From Eledone cirrhosa (lineage: Eukaryota), in assembly GCA_964016885.1 (NCBI GenBank), contig OZ024742.1, forward strand, positions 60,388,001-60,452,000: 64,000 bases of DNA, in the 5' to 3' direction. Under the pieces are notes generated by a model, which saw only the letters and a program-made list of their open reading frames with translations, ran no database searches and was not told the origin of the DNA. The position numbers and the translations under genes are program-made. Below, in pieces: positions 6,818-60,527 of this stretch (within the stretch, counting starts at the first letter, position 1; every line of letters begins with the position of its first letter).

Positions 6818-6849
<32 letters not shown>

Positions 6850-9365
6850 TTATTAAAATAACAGATTAAAGTTTAAGCAAAGAATCGCTGCTTTCACCCT
6901 TAACAGGATCTTCTGAACCTAAAAAAGTCAATCTGTGAACTCAGAAATAAATATTTCAATAAACCTTGTAGCCGGAGGAAGACAGGAAGACGATACTCTG
7001 GTTCGTGGAAACGTTCCTTGGCAAAAAACGGAAAAAAACGAAGATAATACGTCATTATGTGGCGCGTTGAGAACAATTGCACGCAAAGACAAAACCACGT
7101 AAATGGTATAACTGAAGTCGTAGACTAAAATTCTAACTAGGAAACCGAATGATTCTCGGCTTCTGAGTTAAGAATAAAGTAAATAAAATACAGAGGTAAT
7201 TGAAATAAATAAATACATACACGCATCCATATACATACATATACAAGCATACGCAAAACACTCGCCATAGCTATACAAATACAAGCATGTACACAAAAGA
7301 ACCAGCACGCACATACAGAACCCACGCAACGCCTGTGCTCGCACACATACGAAAGTATACACCAAATACACATAAAAATATATTTAAAAAAAATATATAA
7401 GTGTGTTTGTTGTGTGTGTGCGTGTATACATATAATTAAATAAACGTATATAAATAAATAAATACGTATATAACGCGCTCACACACATACCTACATGTAA
7501 ATATACATATGTTCGGAGACGTAGGTCGACGAAAACACAAAGTACACATATACACACACCCTGCATACGTACGAACCCGCATACCCACATAGACGCAAAG
7601 CTCGCGTATACACATAACCAAATGCACATGTACCAGAATATATAATATATACGCCATAACATACACAAACAAATATACGTACGAGAAAGTATACTTACCT
7701 TCACAAAACATACAGGTAATATATACATACCTATACAAATAATTAATGGTATAAACATAACATATACTTAGCTACCACATTAAGACGTAATATAACCGCG
7801 TATAGTTCGTACTATCCGTTAGGGTATAATGAGGAGCTGTAATATAGGAAAGTTTTGTGCAATTCATGTTTACAAGCCGAAATTGCTTCATATTTTTTTG
7901 TTTTAGATGTGGTCTTTGGAGTAGAATATTTCCCTGGCCTCAGCGGCGCAGAGGTCACATGGTCTTGTATTTCCGTTATACGATCTAGCCCTAGCTAGGA
8001 TCTCCCAGTGTAACTTATATTGGGTGTGGTTGTCTTTTAGACTCCCGATATAAGCTGAAAGTGACGTCATATTTCTCCTTAAAGAGTCAAGAAAAGAATG
8101 AGTATGCATGTAAAGACGCTGCTTGAATCTATTGGCGGTTAACTTTATGTAGGCCCTACGGGACGTGGGTATTTCCACCTTACATTTGTAGACAATGTTA
8201 CTAGAGAGCCATTTCCCGGATAGGGGGCAGACAACCCGATTCCTACAATTACAGTTAGTACTAGCTACAGGGTTGCACGTGTTCCTACGGCTAGGTAGTT
8301 TAGCTAAAATTGAAGCTGTGAGGTTATGTGCAAGGTTAAGAGTCGTAGAGTAAGACATTTTAATGGTATTTCTATTAAAAATGTTACTATATTTATGTGC
8401 ACAAAACTTTCCTCTATTACAGCCCCACATTATACCCTAACGGATAGTACGCACTATACGCGGATATTTTACTTCTTGATGTGGTAGCTAAGTATATGTT
8501 ATGTTTATACCATTAATTATTTGTATAGGTAAGTATATATTACCAGTATGTTTTGTGAAGGTACGTATACTTTCTCGTACGTATATTTGGATTGTGTATG
8601 TTATGGCGTATATATTATATATTCTGGTACATGTGCATTTGGTTATGTGTATACGCGAGTTTTGCGTCTGTGTGAGTATGCGGGTTCGTACGTATGCAGG
8701 GTGTGTGTATATGTGTACTTTGTGTTCTGGTCGACGTACGTCTCCGAACATATGTGTATTTACATGTAGGTATGTGTGTGAGCGCGTTATATACGTATTT
8801 ATTTATTTATATACGTTTACTTAATTATATGTATAATCGCACACACACATACATATATATATATCATTTTTTATATATATTTTTATGTGTATTTGGTGTA
8901 TACCTTCGTATGTATGCGGGCACAGGCGTTGCGTGGGTTCTGTATGTGCGTGCGGCTTTTTTGTGTACGAGCTTGTATTTATATACCTATGGCGAGTGTT
9001 TTGCGTATACTTGTATATGTACGTATATGGATGCGTGTATGTATTTATTTATTTCAATTACCTCTGTATTTTATTTACTTTATTCTTAACTCTGAAGCCG
9101 AGAATCATTCGGTTTCCTACTTAGATTTTTAGTCTACGACTTCTGTTATACCGACTGCAAAGTTTTTTGAAATATTTACTTATGCTTTCACAGATTGACT
9201 TTTTAGTTTCAGAAGATCCTGTTAAGGGTGATAGCAGCGATTCTTTGCTTAACATTTAATGTTATTTTAATAAATATTTGCTCTACGGTTATTATATATT
9301 TGATATATATTTATCCATATCGAGCCCTCTTTGGATTTTGTGTCTTCAAATTTATTATTATTACT
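6850..9365 (-). mobile_element. 5'-truncated PLE family B (- strand 6850-8400) with inverted copy of its 3' region (8398-9365)
   Basis: ~900-bp inverted arms around a GIY-YIG remnant; (TA)n on both sides; further copy at 43458-45108. Confidence 0.9.
7812..8400 (-). pseudogene. PLE linker + GIY-YIG endonuclease remnant (CxC..CPL.G type)
   Basis: IFNRNTIKMSYSTT..NCNCRNRVVCPLSGKWLSSNIVYKC..AYIKLTANRFKQRLYMH..LSAYIGSLK..WEIL..CDLCAAE. Confidence 0.88.
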
Positions 9366-9474: not shown

Positions 9475-9767
<293 letters not shown>

Positions 9768-9789
9768 TATATATATATATATATAACTC

Positions 9790-14530: not shown

Positions 14531-14532
<2 letters not shown>

Positions 14533-14608
14533 CGAAGGAAATGTGGTAAGGAACCAGGTGGACCATAACGCACCAAAGTACTCAATACTTAGGGTAGTAG
14601 AGTGGGTA
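14531..14608 (-). repeat. Isolated 3'-terminal 78 bp of PLE family C in (TA)n
   Basis: aacgaaggaaatgtggtaaggaaccaggtggaccataacgc.. near-identical to 9575, 33660 and 60312. Confidence 0.9.
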
Positions 14609-16645
14609 AATATATATATGTGTGTGTGTGTGTGTGTGTATGTGTGTGTGTATGTGTGTGTGTGTGTGTGTGTGTGGGTATGTGTGTGTGTAGGAATGTA
14701 TGCATGTATGCAGACATTTATACAGTATGACAATTTCATATGTAAAATTACGCTCATGCAGAAAAAGACGCGTGCATAGACATGAATACATATATCTACA
14801 TAAACACACATGTCGAGTGGATACAATAATATGCTAAGATGACCGAAAAGTTATCAACAAGCTGTTTTTACACGACTGTAGTTAAATATCTGAAAGCAGT
14901 TGAAGAACAAACTTAATATAGCAATTTGTGGAAAGAGGAAAGTCATCAACCACAGTGCCTTACTTTATTCACCCTAAATGAATGGACGGCAAATTTGACC
15001 TCAACGGAATTTCAACACAGGCTGTTAAGTGTCAGGGCAAATACTGCAAAGCTCTAATGATTCTACCAATCCACCTTCTTACACTTTAGTAACAATAGTA
15101 ACGAAGATGATTTATAAAACATACTTTTATGCTGTGCTCTAACTATTTCTTAACAAGAACAGTGTGTCTAAACATTACTGACACAACAACAACGACAACA
15201 ACAACAAAATTATATAATTTACCTGATAATTGTTTGATGGGGATTTTCTAAGAGTTCCCTTCGCATGAGGATTGTTATTTTCAGCTAAGTATTAAAATGA
15301 GAATAAAGAATAAAATAGAGGGATGTTTATTTATTGATGGCCCACCCGCTTTGCTGTGACCTAATGACTGAAACAATTATCATATCAATTAAAATATATG
15401 TATTTAGAGTCAATTCATTCTCCAAACCCAAATTCTTACAAAAAGCCTACAAGCAAAACATCGTCTGTTTAGACAATAAATTATTTACTTATTTCTTATC
15501 AAATGAGGACTTAATCATGAAATTAACAGGCAAGTGGCTAAGCATTCCGCTGCCATGCTTTCTTATAAGGTAGTATTCTGAAGAGTCAACGTGTATTTCA
15601 AGTCAGATGCATTGTAAACATGGTCTCTCCCAATTTCGCACACAAGCATTTGGCCAAAGTGGCACGCGGTGAATTCGAACTAAGGAAATAGATGACTACG
15701 AATGAAAAATTTAAATATCCATCAACTGATCAATACGTAAGCGATACATTGGCAGAGTTGTGCCAACGTCGGATAGTATGCTGTGTGGCATGCGTTCCCG
15801 CTTCATGCTTTCGGAATTCAAATTTCGCTATAATAAACTTTCACTTTAATCCTAACGAGGTTGATAAACATAGTACCAGTCTAATACTTACCTCTCATTC
15901 TATTCTTCACTGGAATGAATTTGATATGTTCCTATCCAGAGAGGAAATAAGCTGAGCAAGGGTTAAAAAGGCCCCAAAATAATATATGTCGATACGATGA
16001 CCTTATGATTGTATCGGGATTTACGTGTTCATATAGATATGCATATTGCTGAATATATAAATATACTATGACAGAGAACGATGCCATGAAAAAACTAACT
16101 TTTATATAGTAACATAAAATTGCCCTCATCCTCTAATAGAGCTCTTGGAGTGTGTCCTAAGCATTTTTATCCTGGCAGCGCCTCATTACTGCACAGTTTG
16201 AAACACAGCCGGTTTCTTCCAGAGAACGAAGAAAAAGTCTGAAATAATCGATGGTACAATAGCTACTTTACTTATCGATCAGGAAATGAATAAATACAAG
16301 CAGTGAGATCTGAACTCAGTGCGTATTGGGCCGGAACAATCACCAAAACATTTTTATTTGGTCGCCCTAACGACACTGCCTGTCCACCGTCACACATTGT
16401 AAGCCGCAAGTTGTGTACTTAAATAGCCTGGTCTGAGTTTGAAGTTTGGAACTTAAAGATAACGGTAACACAATAAAACAGAGAAGTATCAGTAACATGA
16501 TTAAAGATACTTTGATTGTAGTTTTATCAATATATGAATTATTGATTTGCCTTCGTTTGTAGTTTCTTGAAAATATAATGATTTTGCTGCTGTTATTGTC
16601 ATCATTACTTGTGTTGCAGCTGCTATTTTTTCTGTTGATGCTATA

Positions 16646-17664: not shown

Positions 17665-19289
17665 AATCAAGAAACTATTATTCCTATCGTAAATAACTTC
17701 CCCAATCCAATCTCTTCTATAGATAACACTAGGTCACTTGTTAATAACCTGTTAATCTCTCTAATCGCAATTGCAATTGCCCTATTAAAAATAAATCTCC
17801 TCTTAACAACCATTGTCTTGAAAAAAAATTAATCTACGAATGTAAAGTTATAACTGACACCAATTCCTTTACCTATTTTGGCTCCACTTCCACCTCTTTA
17901 AAGCTCGTCTTTATAATCATCATTCGTCTTTTAAATACCAACTTAAAAGAACCAACACGGCACTCTCAGAACTCATATGGTCCTTGAAAGACAAAAATAT
18001 TAACTATAACATCTCTTGGAAGAAGGTTTCTTCTGCTTCTACATACTTGAACAGTTCTCTATCCAAGACATGCAATCTCTGTTTATGTGAAAAATGTACC
18101 ATTATATCTAATTTAGATTCTATAATAAATAGACGCACTGACTTGTTTTCTCTCTGCTTGCATACATTCCACAGAACATTCCATAAAGTATACAGCTAAT
18201 ATCTAATACTTTACCAATTTAAAATCCTTTTCTCAAAGGTAAACATATATATATATATATATACATATATATTTCTTTAAAAATATACCCATCTTTCTAC
18301 CTTATTTCAATGTTATTTATTATACATTATATGATACTAGTTACTCATTCTATTTCACTCCTATTTATCACTTCCCTTTCTTTTTCCTTTTTTCTTTTCT
18401 TTTCTCTTTCTTTTAATTTCTAACCCCTAATCTGTACCTTTCTTTCCTAGATACTTCTCAATCATTATTGTGCCTAACGTAAAAACAATTATTACACAGC
18501 ACAATATATTCTTACTTTATATCACCTTAAAAAAATCCTTCGTAAACATAAACATTTTTTTGACATTAGATTATTCATCCTCAATTCATTATTTTTTTCT
18601 CCCTTTCATGCTCATCTTACTTATACATATTACACTTATTCATCCTCTCTTCTACTTCTTTCACAATATATCCTTAATTACATTACTATTGCTATATTTT
18701 TATATTTTTTAATAATACATATCAACAATTTCTTTCCATCGCACACATTATTAAACCCTTAAATATTATTCTTAATACATATTAACAATTTCTTTTCATC
18801 GCACATATTATTAAACCCTTAAATATACAAACCTTAATTTAACATTATTTAAAAATTTTTCACTTCGTTAATTTTCAAATACTTTTAATTTATATATTAT
18901 CTTCCAACGGTTTTTCAACCTCACTATGTAAAACAATATATTTTTCTCAGTTATAAAAGCTATCTCTCTCTCTCTATCACCCATCTCTCCTCCTATCTCA
19001 TCCTTCCTCATTATACTCCTCCCCCTCCACTGTTTACTCTCATCTCCTCCTCTTTTTCATCCTTTCCACCCCCACCCCACCCCTCGTTTTTTTTTCCCAA
19101 TATCACACATCAATCTAAAACTACTTTTCATATGTTGATTTAAAACTGCACTATTCACAAGTGTGTTTTAACCTTCATATCATGTCTCCCTATTTTATCT
19201 GACGAAAACGCAAATGTTATTGCATGATGATATTTGTTTTTGAAATGCGCATAATAAAATACATGGAACTCTTTTAACCATCTTTTGAT

Positions 19290-23521: not shown

Positions 23522-23595
23522 CACCAAAGTACTCGATACTTGGGGTAGTAGAGTGAGCTGCTGAAACGGCCAGAACTCAGCCGATGGGGCCCCAA
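23522..23595. repeat. Diverged mini fold-back related to PLE family C
   Basis: caccaaagtactcgatacttggggtagtagagtg joined to gaaacggc..ctcagccgatgggg. Confidence 0.65.
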
Positions 23596-33065: not shown

Positions 33066-33757
33066 AGAATGGTTACTTTAAGAGTTGTTTACCTACGACT
33101 TAACTTGCAAACTTAATTAATGTGCGCATGCATGCATATGTTTATAAATTTAAATTTACATGTTTATTATCGTGTAAATTTTATCATAGGTACATCGAGG
33201 ATATATCTGTGTACATACATGATTTACTATATAAGCATGACGTAATCTACTGGAACTCATTTTTTTCCAAACTTCTCTCATGATATGCAGTTTTAAACTA
33301 CTCAGTGTAAGATAGTGGATTGTGGATTATATAATAATCCAGATTCCGTAGGAGATTGCATAACTATATAGGAGCACTTGTTATAGACTCTATTGTATGA
33401 TAAATGTTTCTTCGAATGTCAACAAATCTTTCCTAATTATTCCTATTAACCTTTCATATTAAATTAATCGGTAGAATACTCTTTGAAACCAATGTACCAT
33501 ACTCGGTGATGCATCTCGTATCAAGATATTTATGTTACACACATCCATTAGCCACGCCAAGCACAAAACACTAGAATATACACGTACACACACACACACA
33601 AACATATATATATATAAATATAAATTTATACATAGATATATGTATATATATATATATATAACGAAGGAAATGTGGTAAGGAACCAGGTGGACCATAACGC
33701 ACCAAAGTACTCAATACTTGGGGTAGTAGAGTGGGTAATAGGAACCAGTAAGACCCC

Positions 33758-34318
33758 TCTTACAGCACTACACCAAACTTCGCACAAAACATCGTCTCCT
33801 CTAACAACAAAAAACTCAACCCCGATGGCAGAAATAACCTAAATAGCAGTGGAGAACCGACCAGGAGGTGTAACAGTCCGGATAGATCCATTTGCCCACT
33901 CGACAATAGATGTAGAGACCGTAATGTGATCTACCAGTGCAACGTGAGGACGGATACCTCCAACAAAGCCTATATAGGACTAACCGCATGTGACTTCAAG
34001 ACCCGGCTATACCAACATAGACATACCTTCCGAAACCCGGCCCAGAGTCACGCCACTACACTTTCGGGCCATATATGGGACCTCAAGGACAACAACATCA
34101 CCTATGATCTCACTTGGAGATTACTGTCCAGAGCCTATTCTTACACGGGAGGACGCCGTCCGTGCAATTTATGCTCGGAGGAAACTTTACAAATGCTGTT
34201 TTCGACGGACCAACTCCTAAACAAGAAAGATGAACTGGTTACTGCATGTAAACATAGATTGCGTAGGACTTACCTCGCCCTCAAACCCCATAAGGACCCG
34301 GGGGGGGGGGGGGGTTAG
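33758..34318 (+). pseudogene. PLE GIY-YIG endonuclease (5'-truncated, frame open)
   Basis: SYSTTPNFAQNI..CNSPDRSICPLDNRC..NVIYQC..AYIGLTACDFKTRLYQH..LSGHIWDLK..WRLL..CNLCSEE..LNKKDELVTACKH. Confidence 0.9.
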
Positions 34319-35427
34319 ACTAGGGCTATAACACCCCACTTGCCGATTTTGCAATGGGTAACCCCTGCTTGCCAAGGGAGACGTAAGATCTTTTATTCTT
34401 TTATCGCTTCCTTTATTTCCTTCTTCCCCCCATCCCTCCTTAGTCCTTCTACCCCAGCTCTTCTTCTTTGTCGGCGTCTTTTCTCGCCCACCCGAGGCTG
34501 CTCTTTGGCCCCTTGTAGCCTCTGTACCCCCACCCCCTCCCCTAGTCTATGATAGATTTGGCGGACTCCGCTTTTTATAGCAGTTGGTTTAGACCCCGGA
34601 TACTTGCCCCCTTTTTCCGACCACTGCCACTATTTTCCGTGCCTTCTATATTTCTTAGTGGCACTTATGCCTTATTTTCTCGTTTCAGTATTTCTTTCTT
34701 CGCTTTTCTTTTGGGCGGGGTGGATTCTGAATTAATTTTTCCGTATTCTACCTTTACTTCGTACGAACTTTCATGTAGCTTGTTTTAGATCTTTTAGAGT
34801 TAGCATTAGTATATATTTTTTTCGGGACTCAGAACTATTATCTCGTACTAGTTTACTTTGCTGCACTGGGTGGTTGCTGGCATTGTGCCCGGGATAGAAA
34901 CCTTTATTATTTATTTCGTGGTAGTCTCTTTAGTATTTTGGCCCCATTTGTTGACCCGTCACCGTATGATTTACGTACTTATACCTCTTAAAAGGGTCCT
35001 TGCCTATTCCGTCCCACCTAGTTCATTTACTTATTTCGTTATTTCTTTATTTATTTCTTTACTTCTTTCTTTCTTTATTTATTTTTTTATCTAGCCTAAC
35101 AATAGCTAGAGACTTAGGTCGTAGAACTTGCTTTACTTTTTTCTTTACACTTATTCGCTTTTCTTCACTCTCAGTATCTCTTCTTTCATATATATTTGTA
35201 CCCCTCATTGTTCTACCTACCGTTCCGACTTCCTCCCCCTCCCCCTCCCCAGTATCTTCTTTGACCTCATGCGCAGCTGTAGCTGGCACTACCAACGCTT
35301 GATTGGGTCTACTCCACCCCCTCCCCTCTTTCTCCTACTGGCAGGTTTAGCCACCATCTCCCCTACTAATTTGCAATCACAGAATTACTACTGACTTTTG
35401 ACAATCACTTTGACCATATATGGAATT

Positions 35428-35530
35428 ACCCCTTGAGAAGATCGGCTATTTAAATACCAGGATAAATTTTCATTTAGTCCAGAATTAGCCGTCGAAACGG
35501 CTTGAGCTCAGCCGTCTAAAAAAAGGGGGT
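35428..35530 (+). ncRNA. Type I HHR (U3/A8 variant, long stems II and III), interrupted at its cleavage site
   Basis: acccc-TTGAGAA-ga(t)cggcta..tagccgtc-GAAA-cggc t tgagctca gccg-TC-[taaaaaaag]-ggggt. Confidence 0.85.
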
Positions 35531-35540
35531 CTTACTGGTT

Positions 35541-35585
<45 letters not shown>

Positions 35586-36534
35586 GTGGGTGGGGGGGGG
35601 GCAAATATAATCAGACACACGAGATTATCATAAATATAAAAATGGAAGTTGCAGGCGCAATTCCTTGTGATTAATTCCCACGGGCAAACAGAGTTCTTCT
35701 TTAGAGATGTATATCTTGGTCAAAAAGAGGTGTATTTATATATGCCAATGTCATCTGCTTCTATCCGTCCCCAAAGTTCAGTAAGTTTAGTTTGCTTGCA
35801 ATGTGAAATATTCTGTATACTATTGTATATATATATATATATATGTGTGTGTGCGTAGCGATAATTTTAACAGTGACACAAATAGGTACTCAAGTTTCGT
35901 TGAGTTATGGGCACCAATTCGTCATATTTATATATATATATATATATTAAATTAGAATTTTATTTCTCGCCCTAGCACAGCTGATAAAATAAATGTAAGT
36001 ATGCACACATACACACGCATATATATATATATATATATATAAGCAAATAGTTATTTAATTTGTTGGTTATTCAATAAATTTATTCATAACAGATTCGAAG
36101 CACTGTACATAATTCTTCTGGAGTATAATATCAATAATATATAATAAATGGAAACTATCTTTATAAAATCATATTTATTTTATTATATATATTTCAAGGG
36201 TACCAACATTATTTTGGTACGCTCGCATCAGATAAAATACAAAAGTTGTTTAATAGATAATGACATATTCAAGAACAAGAACTTGTCTTTTTAAGTTCTG
36301 TTTGAATAGTGAAAGAAATTCAAATCTTAGGATGAATATGTTAATCAGGATAGCGTAAAGTTGAAAAAGACCGTTATATTTAGACGCTAGGTAAATATAA
36401 ATAATTATTAGTGTTATTTTTTAAGGGAAAAAGAGAGAGAGAGGCTAATATTAGTGCGTATGAGAATTTAAGGGAAGAATATAAGAAAAAATATATTTTG
36501 TAGTTAGAAATAGACTATTATTATTGATATATAA

Positions 36535-36722
36535 ACGGGCGGTGAATTGGCATTATCGGTAGAAGGTCAGCCATGTTTTCCAGCACAGTCACGTCCCTTT
36601 ACGTTCTGAGTTCAAATCTCGCCGAGGTTAACTTTGCCTTTCATCCTTACGAGGTCGATAAAATAAAGTACCAGTAATGTACTGGGTAATTGCTGGCCTT
36701 GTGCCAAAAAGTAGAAACAATT
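36535..36722 (+). mobile_element. SINE inserted into the inverted PLE arm
   Basis: Full A-box/B-box/body; absent from the homologous + arm near 43015. Confidence 0.88.
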
Positions 36723-36821
36723 ATTAATATATAAATGTATGGATCGTATTAGTTATGGTGTAAAGAGAGTGAAATAATTATATTTACTTATATAATTATA
36801 TATTTTGGTAGTATTTATAAT

Positions 36822-36992
36822 ATAATGGTTTCTTATATAGGCACAGGGCCAGTAATTTGGGGGGAGAGAAAAGTCGATTAAATCGACCCCAGTGCGTGAC
36901 TGGTTCTTTATTTTATCGACCCCATAAGGCAAAGTTAACCTCGACGGGATTTGAGCTCAGATCATAAAAAGCCGTAACTCTATGCCGCAAGT
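36822..36992 (-). mobile_element. Second SINE in the inverted PLE arm, at a local deletion
   Basis: tttattttatcgaccccataaggcaaagttaacctcgacgggatttgagctcaga; absent from the + arm. Confidence 0.85.
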
Positions 36993-37767
36993 TATTTATA
37001 TAAATATTTATACAAATAATTTTAGTGAGTATATATGTTGTTTTTATTAAAAGATAGATCATTTAAATATCTTTTATATGTGAATAGTTAGGATGAATTT
37101 CCTGTTTACAATTTCAATATATATTTAAGAAAAAGGAGGTAGTTCTATTTTATTATAGAAGATTATTTTGTACATTCAATATTTGCATCAAGATAGGAAT
37201 ACATTTACAATTTACGAAGTAAACGAAAATTATACAACACAATTTTAAATTGTATCTAATGTTTAGTTGTTACTTTGAAGAAATGTGTAAGCGTGTTACA
37301 TTATAAGGGAAAAGAATACTCCAATATTTCTTAGTTAAGATATTTATATTTACCAATTAATTCTAGAATTTACTTTTCAAAAGATATTCCAATTAAGATA
37401 TATGTAAAATATTACATATTTTCTAGATAAAAATTCTTTTATATATGTATTTAGATGGCATTCCTTATATTTATGCATGTGAGAGTGATATTAAGCATAT
37501 ATATGTATTGACGTCTATATAGTCTATTAGGAAGAAATATTCTAGACATAAAAATAATATTCAGAAAACATCACTAAAACCATCACAAAAAGGTATATTT
37601 CAAAATATCATTTAGAAAACCATTTTAAAGGGATGTCATTTAGAAAGAAATATCATTTAAAAAGAAAAGAAAAATATCATAAAAAAAAACATCAGAAAAC
37701 ATCATCAAAACATAGTGAATATGTATAAGATGTAAACAAGTGAGATATAGATAATATTTCCTATAGA

Positions 37768-38890
37768 TTATAGATGCTTCTGAACGTCTTGGATTGGCGA
37801 CGATGTGTGCAAGAATTGAATAATTCTTTCTTTTTATTTATAGAGTTTGATTGATAAGTATATGAAATATTTCTTCAGTACACATATGACAAATTCTTGA
37901 GAGAGCCATATTTCGGTATGCGGGCGCTTTCGAAATCGTTTCCCAAGAGAGTGAGTAGTCGATATTATTGTCTTTTAAGGACTAAATTAGATGTGAAAGT
38001 GATGTTGAAAGACTTTTGTCCGATGTATTAAAAGTATGTTTGTGACTATACCAGCGTTCGTTAAATTTTGTAGAAGTGTTTCCTATATAGTTATATATTT
38101 TATCTCTAGTTTTTATTGTGCATTTATATACTAAGTTTTTATCAATTATTCTGTAAAGGGCAATTTAATTCGTTTCTACAGTTACATTTTCTAGAGTTGT
38201 CGTCTATAGGAACGGTGCGATTATTGTTAGTATTAATACTGTTATTAGTAATATTAATATTGTTATTTTGCTTTATTTGGATTGGGGTTAAATTTAAGTA
38301 TCTATTATTAATTCTCTTAATATTTTGCGATATGTGGAGTAAGATAGTTTTATAGTATGTCTGTAAGATAATTTTATAGTATGTCTGTTAAAAATAGAGT
38401 GGTATTTATGGGATTTAGGAACAAGCTTATCTAATGCTTCGAAAAATAGGCTTGCTACAGGTGTTTTAACTCCTAATGAGATTGGGGGAGAATACCAAAT
38501 GATATTTCTATTTCTAGTTCTTTTGTTTGATTTACTATTTATGGTAAATTGCTTATTATTATTATTATAGTAAATTTTCGGATGGTTTTGCATGTTATTG
38601 TTATCTAGCTATTTAATTTTATTCTTGTAACCAGCTCTATGTAGAGTATCATTGTAATAATCTGCCTTATTATCAAACATATTTTTATTGGCTGAAATGC
38701 GTGAAATTCGTTGCTGCACACTATTGACAATAGCATTTTTAACATTTCTAGGATGGTTAGAATGGAAGCTTACGTAGTTTAGGTTTTCTTTAATTTTATG
38801 GAAAGGGTTAAACAGTCCTGAGCTAAGGTTTAAAGTGACATCTAACAAGTTAACAGTGTTATTATTATTCTCAATTTCTAATTTAAGGTT
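37768..38890 (-). pseudogene. PLE RT C-terminus/thumb + GIY-YIG, inverted truncated copy
   Basis: ORFs 38609-38905 (VNLLDVTLNL..SNHPRNV) and 38294-38593 (RNIIWYSPP..IFNRHTIKLSY). Confidence 0.9.
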
Positions 38891-39759
38891 ATAATTATCA
38901 AACATACTTTTAATAGATCGGACAAAAAATGTTCAATATCACTTTCACATCTAATTTGGTACTTAAAAGAAAATAATATCGACTACTCAATCTCTTGGGG
39001 AACGATTTCGAAAGTACCCGCGTACCAAAATATGGCTCTCTCAAGAATTTGTCATTTGTGTATTGAAGAAATATTTCATATACTTACCAATCAAAACTAT
39101 AAATAAAAATATATAATTATTCAATTCTTGCAAACACCACCAATCCAAGACGTTCAGAAACATCTATAATTTACACTATAACTAATACGATCCATACATA
39201 TATATATTAATAATAATAGTCTATTCTAACTATAATATATATTTTTTCTTATATTCTTCCCTTAAATGTTCATACACCCTAATATTAACCCCTCTCTCTT
39301 CTTCCCTTAATAAATAACACTAACAATTATTTAAATGTACCTAACGTCTAAATATAACAATCTTTTTCAACTTTAGGTTACCTTCATTAACATATTCATC
39401 CTAGGATTTGAATTTCTTTCACTATTCAAACAGAACTTAGAACGATAAGTTATTGTTCTTGAATATGTCACTATCTATAAAACAACTTTTATATTTTATC
39501 TGATGAGAGCGTACCAAACAATGTTAGTACACTTGAAATATATAAAATAAAATAAATATGGTTTTATAAAGATAGTTTCCATTTATTAATATTATTGATA
39601 TTATACTCCAGAAGAAACGTGTAAAATGCTTCGAATATGTTATGAATAAATATGTTGAATAACCAACAAATCAAATAGCTTTTGCTTATAAATAGATCCT
39701 TCAATGTAGAGCACTTTAAACTATAACAGATTATAAAGAATTAATAATGTAATCTTTTA

Positions 39760-41953
39760 ATATCTCTTCATCTCTCAAGGATGTACCTTTACCTACCAAT
39801 AAGGAATATTTAAAACAGCTAATAAAAAATCTGACTCTTTCATAAGGAGACTGAGATGGCGCGCTTTCCAATTGAAAAAGAAATCAGAAAATGAAAAAAT
39901 AAATCTAAATATAACTTTGATCTTATATTTAAATCTAGGCAAAATCCACCTTTCAACAAACTATTAGCTGAATTTGAAAATGAAATAATCTCCATAATAC
40001 AGAATGTTAAATTTAAAAGTAGCCAATCAAAGGCCTCAAAAGCAAAATAGACAACCTGAAAAAAACAAAGAAGATCCTCGTAAAATCCGACAAAACTAAT
40101 AATTGATACGGAATGGAAAAGGATGATTATAATAATTTAATATAGAAAGAACTTAGGAAGATATATAAAAAAAGAACATAACTTCGGAAATTATTTACAA
40201 ATTATGTATTCAAAATAAGACTGAACCTTTCATATCAAGGAAACCGAAGATAAATATGAAGGACCATAAAAGAAATTTCGAAGTGGAACTACCAGTCAGA
40301 CTTATTGCACCATCTAAATCTGATTTAGACATAATTAGCAAGCATATACTAGATAGGATCATACCAGTACTTAAGCACAAATCACACCTTAAACTCTTGA
40401 ACAAATGAAGTAATAGATTGGTTTGCAGACATTAAATTAAAACATAGAAAAAGAATTTATGCAAATGGAAATTGCTAATTACTACTCCTCAATTACCCAT
40501 AACTTACTTAATAAGGCACTTATTTACACTTCAAAATATACTAACTTATCTAGTAATGAAATTAATATCATTTTAACCGCACGGAAAACCCTAATTGAAT
40601 TTAATAACCATCTCTGGAGAAGAGCTGATAGACAGAACAATTTTGATATCACTATGGGATCATCTGTCTCAGCTCAAGTAACATACCTCGTTGGAATTTT
40701 TATTCTTAAAGTACTACATAGAAAAATGGTTGAGATGGCCCGAGGTTTATAGCGCGACGATATGTTACTTATAGTTGATAACCATAGCAATAGTGAACTT
40801 AGTAGGGAAAAGAAAATTTTCATAGAATTCTTCAATAACCTTAAATTAGAAATTGAGAATAATAATAACAGTTAACTTCTTAGACGTCACTTTAAACCTT
40901 AGCTCAGGACTGTATAACCGTTTCGATAAAATTAACGAAAACCTAAACTACGTAATCTTCCATTCTAACCATCCTAGAAATGTCAAAAATACTATTGTCA
41001 GTAGTGTCCAGCAACGAATTTAACGCATTTCAGCCAATAAAGCTATTTTTGATAATAAGGCAGATTATTGCAATGATGCTTTACATGGAGCTGGTTACAT
41101 GAATAAAATTAAATAGTTAGATAACAATAACATGCAAAATCATCCGAAAATTTACTATAATTATAATAATAAGCAATTTAACATGAATAGTAAATCAAAC
41201 AAAAGAACTAGAACTAGAAATATTATTTGGTACTCTCTCCCAATCTCATTAGGAGTTAAAACACCTGTAGGAAACCTATTTTCCAAAGCATTAGATAAAT
41301 GTTTTCCTAAATCCTATAAATACTACTCTATTTTTAAAAGACATACTATAAAACTAACTTACTCTACTACTATGAACATAGCGCAAAATATTTATAGAAT
41401 TAATAATAGCTACTTAAATTTAACCCCAACACAAATAAAGCAAAATAACAATATTAATATTACTAATAACAGTATTAATACTAATAATAATCGTACCGTT
41501 CCTATAGACAATAACGCTAGAAAATAAAACTGTAGAAACGAATTAAATTTCCCTTTACAGAATAATTGTCTAGATAAAAACTTAGTATATAAATGCACAA
41601 TAAAAACTAGAGATAAAATATATAACTATGTAGGAGCCACTTCTACATAATTTAAGGAACGCTGGTATAATGACAAACATACTTTTAATAGATCGGACAA
41701 AAGTTTTTCAACATCACTTTCACATTTAATTTGGTCCTTAAAAGACAATAATATCGACTACTCATTCTCTTGGGAAACGATTTCGAAAGCGCCCGCATAC
41801 CGAAATATGGCTCTATCAAGAATTTGTCATTTGTGTACTGAATACTTATTTCATATACATATCAATCAAACTCTATAAATAAAAAGAAAGAATTATTCAA
41901 TTCTTGCACACATCGTCGCCAATCGAAGACGTTCAGAAGCATCTATAATCTAT
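39760..41953 (+). pseudogene. Full-length PLE ORF (RT + C-terminal GIY-YIG), multiply disrupted, Hydra-clade-like
   Basis: SLKDVPLP..FIRRLRWRAF; KSDKTNN; KDHK..PVRLIAPSKSDL..ISK; FDITMGS; GL*RDD; FLDVTLNL; SNHP; RNIIWYS; NCRNE..PLQNNCL..LVYKC..YVGATST; CHLC; CTH. Confidence 0.92.
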
Positions 41954-43414
41954 AGAAAATATTATCTATATCTCACATGTTTATATCGTATATATCTTCA
42001 CTATGTTGTGATGATGTTTTGCGATGTTTTTTTAATGATATTTTTCTTTTCTTTTTAAGTGATATTTTTCTAAACGACATCCCTTTTAAATGAAAATCTA
42101 AATGGTATTTTGAAATATACCTTTTTGTGATGGTTTAGTGATGTTTTCTGTATATATTTTAATGTCCAGAATATTTCTTCCTAATAGACTATATTGACAT
42201 CAATACATATATATGCTTAATATCACTAACATATGCATAAATATAAGGAATGCTATTTTAAAATAATTTTTATCTTAGAAAATATGTAATATATGATACT
42301 GTAAAATCATATATAAAATGATATATATTTTTTAGATATATTTTACATATATCTTAATTGGAATATTTGTTTAAAATAAATTCAGAATTAATCGGTAAAT
42401 ATAAATATTTTAACTACGAAATATTGGAGTTATTTTTTCCTTTATAATGTTACCCACTTACACATTTCTTCTAAACAACTAAACTTTACATACATTTTAA
42501 AATGTTGTATAATTTTCGGTAACTTCGTAAATTGTAAATGTATTCCTATCTTGATGCAAATATTTAATGTACAAATTAATATTCTATAGTAAAATAGAAC
42601 TACTTCCTTTTTCTTAAATATATATTGAAATTGTAAACAGGAAATTCATCCTAACTATTCACATATAAAAGATATTTAAATGATCTATCTATTAATAAAA
42701 ACAACATATATACTCACTAAAATTATTTATATGAATATTTATATAAATTAACCTGTTGTAATATAACAAAATAAAATATACTTACAACCCTAATACTTCA
42801 TAAAACATACTTATAAATATTATCTCTATAATACTAAAACTCAATATTAGAATAGACCCAATAATTAGTAGTATCTATCATTTTTTTTGTATTTGGTATT
42901 CTACCACTTCAACACATTTATAATTCTCATAATATATTATAAATACTACCAAAATATATTATAATTATTTCACTCACTTTACACCATAACTAATACGATC
43001 CATACATTTATATATTAATAATAATAGTCTATTTCTAACTATAACATATATTTTTTCTTATATTCTTACCTTAAATTTTCATACACCCTAAAATTAACCT
43101 CTCTCCTTCTCTTAAAAAATAACACTAATAATTATTTAAATTTACCTAGCCTCTAAATATAACTGTCTTTTTCAACTTTACGTTACTCTCATTAAAATAT
43201 TCATCCTAGGATTTGAATTTCTTTCACTATTCAAACGGAACTTAAAACGTTAGGTTCTTGTTCTTGAATATGTCACTATCTATAAACAACGTTTGTATTT
43301 CATCTGAGGCGAGCGTATCCAAAAAATGATGGTGCCCTTGAAATATATATAATAAAATAAATATGATTTTATAAAGATAGTTTCCATTTATTAATACTAT
43401 ATATATATATATAT

Positions 43415-43457
<43 letters not shown>

Positions 43458-43460
<3 letters not shown>

Positions 43461-45108
43461 ATAATAATAAATACGAAGAATATAATCCAAAGAGGGCTCG
43501 ATAAGGATAAATAATAATCATATATATAAGAACCCTAGAGCAAATATTTATTAAAATAGCAGATTAAAGTTTAAGCAAAGAAGCGCTGCTTTCACACTTA
43601 ACGGGATCTTCTGTAACTAAAAAAAATCAATCTATGAACGCAGAAGTAAATATTTCGAAAAACGTTGCAACCGAAGGAAAACAGGAAACGTGAAGACGTT
43701 CCCTGGCAATGAACGGAAAAAAGCGAAGGTAATACGTCGTTATGTGGATCGATGAGAACAATTATACGCAAAATCAAAACCATGTTTATGGTATGAATGA
43801 AATCCTAGACTAATATTCTATTTAAGAAACCGAATGATTCTCAGCTTCAGAGTTAAGAATACTGTAAATAAATTAGTAGAACGGTTATTGAAATCAACAA
43901 TAATTAAATATATACATACACGCTTCCATATACGTACATACACATGCATACGCGAAATCACCCGCCATGCATGCATATACAAGCACGTACACATAAACAC
44001 ACCCACACATACATAAACCCGCGCGACACCTGTACCCGAACACATACGAACATATACACCAAATACACATAAAAAAATATAAATATACACACATAAATAC
44101 GAATATAAGACGCACGCACACACATACCTATATGTAAATACACATATGTTCACTGAATGTACTTCAACCAAAACACAAAGTACACATATACACACCTTAC
44201 ATACGTGCACACACTCATACACACACATAAACACTAAACACACATATACACATAACCATATACACATGTACCAGTATATATAATATAATATATACACCTA
44301 TAACAAATACAAGCAAATATACCAACGAGAAAGTATACGTACCTTCACAAAACATACGGGTAAGGTATACTTACCTATACAAATAAGTAATGGTATAAAC
44401 ATAAAATATACTTAGCTACCACATCAAGACGTAAATTATCCGCGTATTGTACGTACTATCCAATAGGATATAATGCGGGGTTGCAAAACAGGAAAGTTTT
44501 ATGCAATTTATGTTTACAAGCCGAAATTGCTTCAGAATTTTTGTTTAAGATGTGATCTTTGGAGTAGAGTATTTTCGGGGCCTCAGCGGCGCAGAGGTCA
44601 CATGGTCTTGTATTTCCGTTATACGATCTAGCTTTAGATAGGATCTCCCAATGCAACCTATATTCGGTGTGGTTGTCTTTTAGACTCCAGATATAAGCTG
44701 AAAGTGACGTCATATTCCTTCTTATAGGTTTAAGAAAAGAATGGGTGTGCATGTAAAGACGCTGCTTGAATCTATTAGCGGTTAACCCTATGTAGGCCCT
44801 ACATAGGTGATTCGACCTTACATTTGTAGACAATGTTCCTGGAGAGACATTTCCCGGATAGAAGGCATTCAACCCGATTCCTACAATTACAGTTAGTACT
44901 AGCTACAGGGTTGCACGGCTAGGTAATTTAGCTAAATTTGAAGCAGTGAAAGATATGTACAAAGTTAGGAGTCGTAGAGCAAGATATTTTAATGGTATTT
45001 CTATTAAAAGTTTTATTATATTTATGTGCTGAGGAGAAGTGCTTCTCAATAAGGGAGAGAAAGATCTTAGCTAATGGTGTGGCCACCTCCATATTATATG
45101 GTGGGTTA
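43458..45108 (-). mobile_element. PLE family B, 5'-truncated copy (GIY-YIG remnant 44456-45107), no inverted arm
   Basis: [33 protein letters not shown]; AYIGLTANRFKQRLYMH..CDLCAAE..LNKNSEAISACKH; colinear with 6850-8400. Confidence 0.9.
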
Positions 45109-49120: not shown

Positions 49121-49907
49121 TATTTACTATAATTATTCGATTGAGAAGCAAATCAAATCTGGTAGATTTAGAGTAAAATACTATGTTATCTCAATTGATT
49201 GTAACAATATATATGTGGTGACAGGCAATGCTTTAAGATCAAGAAGTTTTTCTTTAGGGATTCGTGCATGTTAAGCAAAGGATTTTTCATAGCCTCGGTA
49301 TAGATAAAAGAGAAAAAAAAAAAAGGCGTGACAAAGTGGAAGAGGAAAGGAAAGAAAGATCGCAGCTGGTGTACATATATTTTTAGATGAATATTACAAT
49401 CTTGTTTGTTAAGGAAATGTTAAATGTTTATTAAAATAAGAGTGCAGATAAGGACGATGAAAAAACGCGGACGTATGCTTTCTCGTCAGCTAAATACTGG
49501 AGATCACCACATACAGAGTTGGCCTCCAAATGGTTTGTGTTCAAAAAATTTCCCTCACATTGGATTTGTTAACACGAGGCTAAAGCAAAATACACTTGCT
49601 CAACATGCCATGGAGTATTACGGAAGTCAAAATCACATGTTTGCAAGCAAACACTTTAACTAGCTAACAATTCTTTTGTCTGAAGAGAAAAGCAGATAAA
49701 ACCAATGAATTTATTGAGTTCATGCTTTTCGGCGATGTTTATTATTTAAATTAAATTCACCAATTCAACAGACAGTGACAACGAACACATATGTCAAGTG
49801 AAAATGTTTGGATTTTTTTTCTCATGGTTTCAATGCGTTGACATTTTGTTCTGATATATTCTTTATATATACTGTATATATATATATTATATTTATATAT
49901 ATATATA

Positions 49908-51817
49908 TATATATTCTCTTATGGTCGTTTTGGAAGCCTCAACAATGCAGAAGGGTAAATCTCCGGGTAACAAGATCCGGTGGTGAAGAGAGAGATGTAA
50001 GTGAATGTAGAATGAGATGTATAGTGTGTAGAAGAACGTAGGAAAGAGCGTAAAAAATAAAAATAATAACACGAGATAGATTTACCTCGGGAGAGATTTA
50101 ATTGTCCCTATATTTCGGATTCACATCCAGTAACTGGGGGATTTTCCGGGGTGGGGGAGGTTATATGTCGGACAGGAGCGATATGTGTGTCCTCTGTTGT
50201 TCGTTGTTTTGAATATCTGAGGTATTCAGCAGAGCGCGCGTGCACGCGGAATAAGTTCGGTCAAGCAAAGGTCGACGACCGGTATAGTTCTTTTAATTGT
50301 GTGAGTGGGGTGGCGTTAGCTCTCAATCCATTGTATCTATCTGTGATGGTTTCTGTATTAGCCGTTTATTCGTATGGTGGTGGTATTCGCCTGCCTGTTT
50401 GGTGAATGCTACTGTGTGTGTGTGTTGTTTTTCTCGCTTGTGTGTGTGTGTGCGTGTGTTGTCTCTTTTGTTTAAACCAACCACCTCATTTTTTCTGCCT
50501 GTTTGGTGAATGCTACCGTGTGTGTGTGTGCGTGTGTTGTTGTCTCGCTTGTGTGTGTGCGTATGTGGTTGTCTCGTTTGTTTAAACCAACCACTTCATT
50601 TCGCTTCTCTTGGATCGGTTATTTATTTGTGGCCCTAGGCGTTTGATCCAAAGTGCTTCCTTGATTCGTAACGTGACGACGTTGCGTTCTGGCGCTAGCA
50701 CTGTGACGATGGGCCTTCCCTCTTTGTTTCCGATTTGGTTATGTGTTTCCGGAAAGTCGGCCCTGGTGTTGATGTGCTCCTTGATCCGGATGTGTAGCGG
50801 CCGGATTGTGCTACCGATATAGTAGTGGTTGCACTTGTCACATTCTACCTTATACACGACGTATGTGCGTAGGCAACAGTTCATATGGCGCATCAGACAG
50901 TTTCTGAGGGAGCACGCGTCAGTCGATTTCCCGGGTTTCCTGGAGAGGCATCTTCGCAGGGAAGGGCCCGAGTGGGCCAGGTGGATGTCGAGGCCCTCCC
51001 TCCATATAGCCCTGCCGATAGCGTTGGTGGTTTTCTCGCCCAGGTGTGGTATTTTAAGGAAGCACCTGCCTTGGGTGTTTCTCTGGCTCTTGCGTCTGGT
51101 GTCTCTTATTCTGTTAGTGAGCGAGGCAGGGTACCCGTTCGTCTCCAGGACTTTGAGGAATCGCTTGGTATGGATGACACCACTCGCCGGATCGCTGCAT
51201 CTGTTTTTAATTCGCATGATCTCGTTCGTGACGTACCCTCTTTGAGCACTGTATAGGGAGGGCAGACCTGCTAGACAACCCCTCCCCCCACACACACAGT
51301 AGCATTCACCAAACAGACAGGCGAATACCACTACCATATGAAACACTGCTAATACAGAAACCAGCACAGATAGATACAATGGATTAAAAGAACTAATCCG
51401 GCCGTCGACCTTTGCTTGACCGAACTTATTCCGCGCGCACGCACGCTCTGCTGAATACCTCAGATATTCAAAACAATGAACAGTAGACGATATGTATCGC
51501 TCCTCTCCGACAGATAACTCCCCCCTCCCCACTCGGAAAACCCCCCAGTTGATGAATGTGAATCCGAAATATTGGGACAATTAAATCTCTCCCGAGGTAA
51601 CTCTATCTCGTGTTATTATTTTTATTTTTTACGCTCTTTCCTACGTTCTTCAACACACTATACATCTCATTCTACATTCACTTACATCTCTCTCTTCACC
51701 ACCGGATCTTGTGTACCCGGATAATTACCCATCTGTATTGTTGAGGCTTCCAAAACGACCAAAAGAATATATATCTTATTATTCCACAATGCTTCAAGCA
51801 AACTTGAATACTCTCTT

Positions 51818-51818
<1 letters not shown>
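49908..51818 (-). mobile_element. PLE family A: 5'-truncated GIY-YIG element (-) with inverted 3' arm (51288-51818) in (TA)n
   Basis: Arms 49908-50420 / 51288-51772; HHR-like motifs at 50104-50140 (-) and 51541-51578 (+). Confidence 0.92.
50582..51258 (-). pseudogene. Penelope/Poseidon-type thumb-linker + GIY-YIG, open frame but 5'-truncated
   Basis: VLETNGYP..LKIPHLGE..YVVYKVECDKCNHYYIGSTIRPLHIRIKEH..LRIKEALWIKRLGPQINNR. The first ~105 aa of the listed 332-aa ORF are read-through of the inverted UTR. Confidence 0.9.
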
Positions 51819-51857
<39 letters not shown>

Positions 51858-51860
<3 letters not shown>

Positions 51861-52847
51861 TAAAGTGGTCCTTCATCAGTGATCTTCCAACCACCATCGG
51901 TATTTCTTCGCTTTAAAGACCATATACCTCCGGTTGGTGCGAGCAACGGCTAAAGAAAGTCGTTGGGACATGTAAATAAAGGAACAGCGAGAGTGTAAAC
52001 AAACAAAGATGGTGAAGCAACGAAAAGTGAGGAAGAGCGAGTCAAGTCCAAAAATTTCCATGAATATAAGTTCGGTGAAATCGTGAACGAGAGAGAATAA
52101 AGACCATCAAACCTGGTTGAAATGTGAGCAAGGAAGGAATTTCGCACAGGTCTAACGGGAGGAAGAAGGAGCCTACTCTGTGAATTCGGTAAACATAAGT
52201 TCTGTGAAATCGTAGGCGAGAGAGAGAAAAAATGCCGACCGGCCTGACCAAGCGTGCGAAAGAAAAGAATTACGCACAGGTCAAACGGGAAGAAGGAGGA
52301 GGAGGAGAGGTAGTAACAGAGAGTGAGTGAGAGAAGGGTGAGGAAGAGGCTAACAGAGAGACTGACTGTTAGAGAGGGTAAAGATGCAGAGAAAGAGGAA
52401 GCAGTAAAAACGAAATAGACGGGTCACAGCGGGAGAAAAAATATGTGTAAATATGAGAATAAACGTGCTGCGGAGTTGCAAATGGGTTACATATGAATAA
52501 AGTGGTCCTTCATCAGTGATCTTCCAACCATCATCGGTATTTCTTCGCTTTAAAGACCATATACCTCCGGTTGGTGCGAGCAACGGCTAAAGAAAGTCGT
52601 TGGGACATTTAAATAAGGGAACAGCGAGAGTGTAAACAAACAAAGATGGTGAAGCAACGAAAAGTGAGGAAGAGCGAGTCATGTCCAAAAATTTCCATGA
52701 ATATAAGTTTCGGTGAAATCGTGAACGAGAGAGAATAAAGACCATCAAACCTGGTTGAAATGTGAGCAAGGAAGGAATTTCGCACAGGTCTAACGGGAGG
52801 AAGAAGAGGTCTAGTCTGTGAATTCGGTAAACATAAGTTCTGTGAAA
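51858..52847 (-). mobile_element. 637-bp unit in ~1.55 tandem copies between (TA)n tracts
   Basis: 51858-52210 repeated at 52495-52847; internal ~125-bp sub-duplication; CTGATGA on - at 51873-51879 and 52510-52516. Confidence 0.85.
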
Positions 52848-53561
52848 TATATATATATATTTGTGTGTGAGAGTGGAGGTCTTTTTATAACAGTGTGTGC
52901 ATCTGAATGAGCTGGGAAGAGCATTAACCTCACTTATTCTGTTCAGGCAAAACTGTTTTTCTTTAATTATTCGATGCAACTCGTACATATTTAAATGCCA
53001 TTGCTGCAGGGTTTATCAAATAGTGTGCCTTGTAATGAACAGTATATTTACACTGAAAAACAGCTGGGTTTCCAAACATGTCTTTTTTTATACTAATGTT
53101 TTAATTGTTATTATTCATTGTGTGTTCAATTTTACAGAAACGTCTCCAAAGAAAACCAATATATAACTGATTGCTTGGGCAATGCTCCATAGCAGTTATT
53201 TAATCCACATTAAGTGTTCATTACCAGCCGATTGATCAATAGGGTGAAGTCGTTAGTGTGCTACATAGAACGCCTCTCGCTATTCGTTCGGGTACTATTC
53301 TATGAATTCCAACCACATTATTGTCACTATTGTCGTTCATCTTCGCGAAGCAAATAAATAAAGAACAATCACAGTAAGGAGTCAAATTGTTTTTCGTTCT
53401 TCTCCTCTGTCATTTTCTCTTGAAAAAACTGGCTGTTGTTAGATCCGTAATAAGAAGGATCAGCTAAGTTTGAATTGCGCATGATTTTCAAGAGAGACTC
53501 ACTATATTCCAGAAATCAAATATTTTGTACCTTACGCAGGAATATTATGTGTCTATATAGT

Positions 53562-60195: not shown

Positions 60196-60497
<302 letters not shown>

Positions 60498-60527
60498 ATA
60501 TATATATATATATATATATACATACAT

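Follow-up and report, generated by a model that had tools for sequence, protein, structure and literature searches.

A Penelope-like insertion in Eledone cirrhosa whose inverted arm end and nine-nucleotide insert coincide at a predicted hammerhead scissile bond

The insertion at 33660-35545 of the window, a 64,000-nt stretch of repeat-rich animal DNA from Eledone cirrhosa, is a 5′-truncated Penelope-like element with Hydra-type features lying in (TA)n, and it is disturbed twice at one predicted bond. Its inverted arm ends on the first nucleotide (+1) past the predicted scissile bond of the element's hammerhead ribozyme, and at its opposite end nine extra nucleotides, T-A7-G, stand inside that same bond. 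This observation is real and concerns a single copy; the broader claim of an earlier note on this DNA, of which a pile-up of inner arm ends at the cleavage position would be the sign, is not borne out in the window or in the public reads used. For the 33660 copy itself, an origin from self-cleaved RNA appears moderately probable, with reverse transcription starting at two internal sites on the 3′ piece, running off at +1, and carrying one cDNA onto an A-tailed 5′ piece. The copy is likely a fossil of self-cleavage in vivo, and the evidence for the mechanism is this one copy.

Anatomy of the insertion

The insertion at 33660-35545 is of a known kind, an ordinary-looking inverted 5′-truncated Penelope-like copy. 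It shows an inverted, 5′-truncated terminal copy with a one-sided tail, TA repeats on both flanks, and a hammerhead motif within the terminal repeat as detected by descriptor scan. The locus sits between microsatellites and contains a run of 17 G. Its parts, with positions numbered from the predicted scissile bond where signs are given, are the following:

33604..33659, TA-rich target, left flank
33660..33757, minus strand, inverted arm of 98 nt, +1 to +98 past the predicted scissile bond; the one-sided tail within it lies at 33660-33737 and the part common to the right end at 33738-33757
33748..33763, plus strand, hairpin of 6 bp with a 4-nt CCCC loop over the arm/ORF junction
33758..34318, plus strand, ORF remnant (3′ part, 186 aa) made up of a linker and a GIY-YIG-type endonuclease with Hydra-like motifs
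34319..35427, plus strand, pyrimidine-rich non-coding 3′ region of the element, about 1.1 kb
35428..35530, plus strand, predicted type I hammerhead (descriptor scan and fold)
35428-32/35526-30, plus strand, stem I of the hammerhead, followed by the core UUGAGAA at 35433-39 (U3-A8)
35440-48/35486-93, plus strand, stem II with one bulge, followed by GAA at 35494-96
35497-502/35510-15, plus strand, stem III, with G-U-C17 at 35514-16
35517..35525, plus strand, 9-nt insert T-A7-G inside the predicted scissile bond
35526..35545, plus strand, right tip, +1 to +20, its final TAT blending into the target repeat
35543..35583, (TA)n target, right flank

An inverted truncated arm, a tail and a hammerhead are all described as standard features of Penelope-like elements (PMC8557442; PMC3846280). 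The accessible text on endonuclease-bearing Penelope-like insertions describes the same 5′ truncation, head-to-head arm, one-sided tail, junction palindrome and terminal-repeat hammerhead (Arkhipova et al., 2013, PMC3846280; Craig et al., 2021, PMC8557442). The 33660 tail, however, is about 78 nt long against the usual 30-40, and neither an arm halting at the scissile bond nor an insert in the bond at the other end is described in the accessible portions of those two papers.

Only the last 186 codons of the ORF survive, the reverse transcriptase (RT) part being lost. The remnant aligns to the C-terminus of a 704-aa RT-endonuclease protein encoded at a related locus, L001 (38% identity over 168 aa, E 2e-37), whose ORF carries YRDD, RWK, DKT and CxCX5C (CSCPKNATC). 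The remnant endonuclease has no CCHH, with a single Cys between the two Tyr motifs, and near its C-terminus carries a CxxC (CNLC at 136) and a CxH (CKH at 164); its linker is CNSPDRSIC (CxSX5C), in which the second Cys of CxCX5C is replaced by Ser. The Hydra clade is characterized by a C-terminal endonuclease that lacks CCHH and has CxxC and CxH near its end, by CxCX5C in the linker, by RWK and DKT in the RT, and by (TA)n insertion (PMC8557442). The 33660 copy and its sisters at 9575, 14531 and 60312 all lie in (TA)n. The 33660 element resembles the Hydra clade in its C-terminal endonuclease without CCHH, its CxxC/CxH, its (TA)n target and its hammerhead, but differs in the CxSX5C linker and in the loss of its own RT (PMC8557442); it is a probable member on these motifs. 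Pfam gave no match for either the remnant or the L001 protein.

The search for related loci returned eight, of which L001-L003 form one distant family (>99% alike) with a hammerhead about 135 nt past the stop, while L004-L008 are weak matches. No inverted arm was found among the eight. A 22-nt tail pattern had 0 matches in metagenome and genome contigs, and a search among longer proteins scored none of 624 candidates. Other Penelope-like families have also left GIY-YIG-type ORF remnants and long inverted repeats in the window, at 6846-9312, 36031-42748, 43437-45029 and 49864-52848; the descriptor found no hammerhead in these four stretches.

Self-cleavage after C17 is predicted from the motif and its fold. 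The descriptor scan returned ten type I motifs in the window, and the one at 35433-35516 ranked first, with stems of 5, 8 and 6 pairs (sum 19); among 20 shuffled windows none reached a sum of at least 17, and 5 reached at least 12. The type I core is complete (U3-U-G-A-G-A8-A9, GAA-A15.1 and G-U-C17) with the 3-8 pair kept, and G10.1-C11.1 is present among the three stems around it. The U3-A8 variant, which keeps the tertiary pair of the usual C3-G8, has been reported in Penelope-like hammerheads (PMC4209133). Rfam gave no hammerhead family match for 35428-35530; the long loop II, the U3-A8 core and the insert would all lower an Rfam score. Three more single hammerhead-like motifs, with a C3-G8 core, occur at 19199, 55936 and 63142.

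With the insert left in place, the active fold of the native stretch is 5.7 kcal/mol higher in energy than the minimum-energy fold, a rival pairing being made possible by a second occurrence of AGCCGUC; this counts against a cleaved template for the 33660 copy. The repeated 7-mer is shared by the 3′ strands of stems II and III (35487-35493 and 35510-35516), and the alternative fold it allows is the lower in energy. Such a built-in alternative could act as an off state.

Two breaks at one predicted bond

The position of +1 was fixed without reference to the 33660 copy, from the sisters at 9575 and 60312, in which GCCGTC stands directly before a G run. As first noted, the 98-nt arm at 33660-33757 ends GTAAGACCCC and its reverse complement begins GGGGTCTTAC. 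The arm does end at +1, with 0 bases of match beyond it, and is fused straight to the truncated ORF, which opens with TCT TAC AGC at 33758. Up to 1 nt of microhomology may exist at this junction. The scar that the earlier note had placed at the opposite end is also real: 35517-35525 reads T, seven A and G, stands between C17 (35516) and GGGG, and as read from the sequence cannot slide either way. It is missing from the other two of the three right ends in the window, and the 9-mer is single-copy within 32.5-36.5 kb. The insert may be DNA-templated in origin, an 8-nt part of it having an inverted match at 35089; the window holds 28 matches to this part, as expected for T-rich sequence.

An assembly or sequencing artefact at the insert or the junction is highly improbable. 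The setting of the locus between microsatellites, with its 17-G run, would favour such an error, and the public reads discussed below were aligned to a sister copy. Against this, comparison of the 33660 arm with each sister arm shows only 3 substitutions in 98 bases and no indel, no stop interrupts the 186 codons of the ORF remnant, and errors rarely add nine new mixed bases.

Under a uniform model, the chance that one of three to four arm ends falls on a given base is about 0.02-0.03, and the chance that one insert falls in the bond is about 0.001-0.008; the copy was picked after the fact, so that both figures serve only as a guide. Arm end and insert at the same bond are, under that model, far less likely jointly than singly. 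Coincidence would nevertheless have each break arise separately, the arm end from a join guided by a hairpin or microhomology or from later loss at the centre of a palindrome (compare 9575 and 60312), and the insert as an unrelated product of repair or slippage. The 6-bp hairpin with its CCCC loop, a feature absent from the first description of the copy, speaks for a guided join, as a stem of at least 6 bp is given by only 6 of 1739 body positions and is thus unlikely by chance. Palindromes are reported as common at inverted junctions of Penelope-like elements (PMC3846280). Moreover, copies of the family are very numerous, with 9374 contigs and some 20,000 reads per RAD run matching a reference of 134 bases, and this copy was picked as striking. 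However, the hairpin accounts for the site at which the ORF is joined and not for the halt of the arm at +1, and two independent matches to one bond would require about 0.03 x 0.001-0.008 under the uniform model. Coincidence is accordingly judged quite unlikely.

Two readings of the hexamer at 33758 were rejected. It is not a mere fold-back product; it is probably native ORF, because a related ORF remnant in the window carries the same two codons, TCT TAC, at this motif. Nor can the body cDNA have switched templates to the 3′ piece via the hexamer as the last step, which would leave GGGG, not CCCC, before the ORF.

Arm end points in sister copies and public reads

Five copies of the family with an inverted-orientation arm were counted in the window by blastn. 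Besides the 33660 copy they are the following, of which the one at 60312 also served as the reference for reads:

9575..9768, no strand, sister copy, near-palindrome: arm through the bond to -33, direct part from -41
14531..14609, minus strand, sister copy, tail only (+20 to +98) between TA repeats
23522..23555, minus strand, short diverged arm ending at +25, followed by a diverged ribozyme 3′ half in direct orientation
60312..60499, no strand, sister copy, palindrome: arm and direct part meet at -35

The inner arm ends are thus at -33 (9575), +20 (14531), +25 (23522), +1 (33660) and -35 (60312). A spike at +1 had been named by the earlier note as the supporting result, and it is not the main pattern: one arm in five ends there, and of the three family arms that reach the bond, two run through it. 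Other families with a hammerhead contribute three inverted pairs in the window, with ends at -130, -36 and -34, none of them at +1; the other local pairs among the 14 listed were excluded from this count, no hammerhead having been found in their arms. The outer limits are more regular, with all three right ends stopping at +20 and four of the five arms starting at +98.

The usual arm end point in the window is -33 to -36, within the ribozyme region, and not +1. This holds for four of the six hammerhead-bearing inverted junctions (9705, 60444, 12687/12748 and 28706/29024), which come from three unrelated families and at which the inverted match stops 33-36 nt upstream of the bond, a distance that falls on different parts of each fold. 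A direct copy at 1117 begins 10 bases upstream of its own core.

The sisters show some further peculiarities. The tail-only copy at 14531-14609 spans exactly +20 to +98, between two inferred RT start sites, as if the outer cDNA had stopped at the inner primer position. In the 9575 copy both arms carry the same private substitution (9661 and 9759), and they therefore either come from one template lineage or have corrected each other. In the two palindromic sisters the G run that follows the bond carries a substitution, in the right arm only (9752 and 60482).

Public reads extend the count beyond the window. Four of 18 public runs were aligned to the sister at 60312-60445, in which +1 is 60409. 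Matches numbered 9374 contigs in X1, 24 in X5, 19,911 reads in X16 and 20,548 reads in X17. Loose ends are detectable by this method, because the right-end TA junction at 60390 is plain (3446 and 2975 reads; 100 contigs). No loose ends at 60409 or 60410 appear among the 20 rows listed of 392. The smallest rows listed are 1008 in X16, 700 in X17 and 28 in X1, which for X16 and X17 correspond to about 10% and about 7% of tail depth if the largest rows were kept. In X1, loose ends are found in 133 contigs at -35 and 93 at -31. Those at 60396-60404 and 60440 point to a second abundant subfamily, differing at +6 to +14 and in loop II.

The read-depth steps at +1 are -38 and -31, smaller than the -175 of the bins that follow. 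If 5% of tail reads stopped there, a further drop of about 300 would be expected, barring compensation by reads starting at the same place; for a quarter of them the figure is about 1,500. Relative to the slope on either side, depth near the bond shows a net gain of about 230-240 reads that is not assignable to one base. Copies with a break at the bond, entered from the 5′ side, could produce it, which would favour a cut template, as could a diverged subfamily joining near 60404. Among the inserts listed at 1% or more, three rows in all, none falls at the bond. Likewise, none of the eight joints listed in the main joint table is at 60409. In a single X1 contig, 60409 is connected to 60377 through one extra A (1 of 11 joints listed), which speaks for a cut template, and one X1 contig end falls on 60409, to which no weight is given, as contig ends mark graph branches. 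Among the eight joints, five turn at 60444, near the end of the reference, and two at 60440.

These counts have their own biases. X16 and X17 are RAD libraries from one study; some 7,100-7,200 of their mates end at 60443, probably at a restriction cut that over-samples run-through copies. Contigs lose rare junctions, and X1 may come from the source sample or from a relative. The arms do not mainly originate by run-off at +1, and there is room for a spike below about 7-10%.

The strongest general form of the claim, that inverted arms in this family normally arise by run-off at the cut, is therefore very improbable and already largely refuted. The 33660 copy itself is the one point in its favour. 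Opposed to it are the end points in the window, where one family arm in five and none of three from other families is at +1, depth steps of tens of reads where a stop of a quarter of tail-bearing reads would cost about 1,500 more, and X1 loose ends that are numerous at -35 and -31 with no row at +1 among those listed.

Reverse transcriptase might instead have stalled on uncut RNA once +1 had been copied, at the three-way junction where the G+C-rich stem III has its base; one cDNA would then have been released and folded back, while the other added or borrowed nine bases and resumed. Stem III (6 bp) starts two bases past +1, so that a nearly identical end point is predicted, and the clustering of other inner arm ends in ribozyme folds at -33, -34, -35 and -36 suggests that structure or position shapes end points. 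Cleavage is also described as dispensable in vitro for PAc, a Penelope-like element discussed below (PMC11167929). Seven T followed by an exact restart at C17, with no base lost or repeated, would be hard to get from a stall, however, and a strong pause site would give a loss of depth at +1 in the reads, where none is seen. Pausing is on the whole an unlikely source of the two breaks, and a cut template is preferred.

Proposed origin and known systems

An origin of the 33660 copy from cut RNA could proceed as follows. The element's protein would nick both strands of a (TA)n site, and two cDNAs would be primed on the 3′ cleavage product, one at +98 (the tail end), the other near +17 to +20, a stretch whose CC-UAU can pair with the target. 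Run-off at +1, the cut 5′ end, would follow for both. The right-side cDNA would then cross U-A7-G into the 5′ cleavage product and copy at least 1.76 kb of it. The insert is most simply explained by a few A-rich nucleotides having been added to the cut 3′ end as a tail, which the cDNA crossed in a template jump, with the G as a tail base or a non-templated C; a T run in the cDNA strand would be expected from copying an A run. Tailing requires that the cyclic-phosphate end be opened first, a point against this account. Alternatively, a small fragment of RNA could have been ligated into the cut to give the insert. The left cDNA would halt at +1, probably folding back on itself for 6 nt, and its new TCTTAC end would pair with the hexamer in the ORF part of the other cDNA, setting the truncation at 33758.

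The earlier note had taken the arm for a run-off cDNA of the 3′ cleavage product. A cleaved template is the simplest account of the two breaks in the 33660 copy, but it does not carry over to the family, in which four of five arms in the window end elsewhere. It had also proposed that the two halves of a cleaved transcript template the two sides of the insertion. The right end does use both halves, in the order 3′ piece, insert, 5′ piece; but +1 to about +20 are found at both ends, and the 3′ piece must therefore have been copied twice. Most family copies would come from uncut or seamlessly rejoined RNA, with the cut-RNA route a minor one.

A wider version of this proposal is offered only tentatively: that the hammerheads cut in vivo, that the halves share a particle and give rise to a few per cent of insertions, that RT primes twice on the 3′ half and jumps to the tailed 5′ half, and that +1 arms and A-rich inserts in the bond recur genome-wide. 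Copies broken at the scissile bond would amount to DNA-level evidence of germ-line cleavage and of cut RNA as template. Scars at the bond can be counted in any assembled genome and, if recurrent, would form a fossil record of ribozyme activity. A small share of +1 ends fits cleavage as mostly a dead end or a rejoined state rather than an arm-making step.

The role of the ribozyme in Penelope-like elements is stated to be unclear in the available literature, in which no report was found of Penelope-like copies broken or scarred at the scissile bond; most subscription papers lie outside it. The closest mechanistic comparison is PAc (Poseidon of Anolis carolinensis), for which two internal RT start sites bound the tail and both target strands are cut and extended (Frangieh et al., 2024, PMC11167929). 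The 33660 copy resembles PAc in the two RT starts proposed to bound its tail, in the proposed cutting and extension of both target strands, and in its AT-rich target (PMC11167929). It differs in that PAc uses uncut RNA as its dominant template and shows no RNA ends at the ribozyme site, whereas the genomic 33660 copy points to cut RNA (PMC11167929). Mutating the PAc ribozyme leaves insertion in vitro normal, and RNA-seq reads neither start nor end at the site; both results weigh against a cleaved template (PMC11167929).

R2 elements, which carry HDV-like ribozymes, offer a precedent for the cut as the determinant of cDNA ends. Ribozyme cut sites are reported to set the ends of R2 cDNAs, with added bases (Eickbush et al., 2013, PMC3774820), and snap-back and extra-template junctions are reported as minor classes (PMC11331408). 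The likeness to the 33660 copy lies in a cut that defines run-off and in added bases, snap-back and extra-template junctions (PMC3774820; PMC11331408). For R2-like elements, whose cDNA end is set by the cut, most copies would be expected to end at the cleavage site; in the 33660 family one of five arms in the window does, and there is no loss of depth at +1.

A hammerhead leaves cyclic-phosphate and 5′-OH ends. In U6/LINE-1 chimeras, RtcB is reported to join such ends before retrotransposition (Moldovan et al., 2019, PMC6789731), a route that would explain the 33660 insert only if a short RNA piece had been ligated into the cut (PMC6789731). Retrozyme RNAs are likewise described as circularised by RtcB (PMC7229834). 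As a separate observation, the stretch at 848-1937 contains, behind an inverted arm and between TA repeats, a tandem array of three identical 317-bp units. Every unit carries a U3-A8 hammerhead, and there is no ORF; the whole has the appearance of a very young retrozyme-like insertion with Penelope-type ends.
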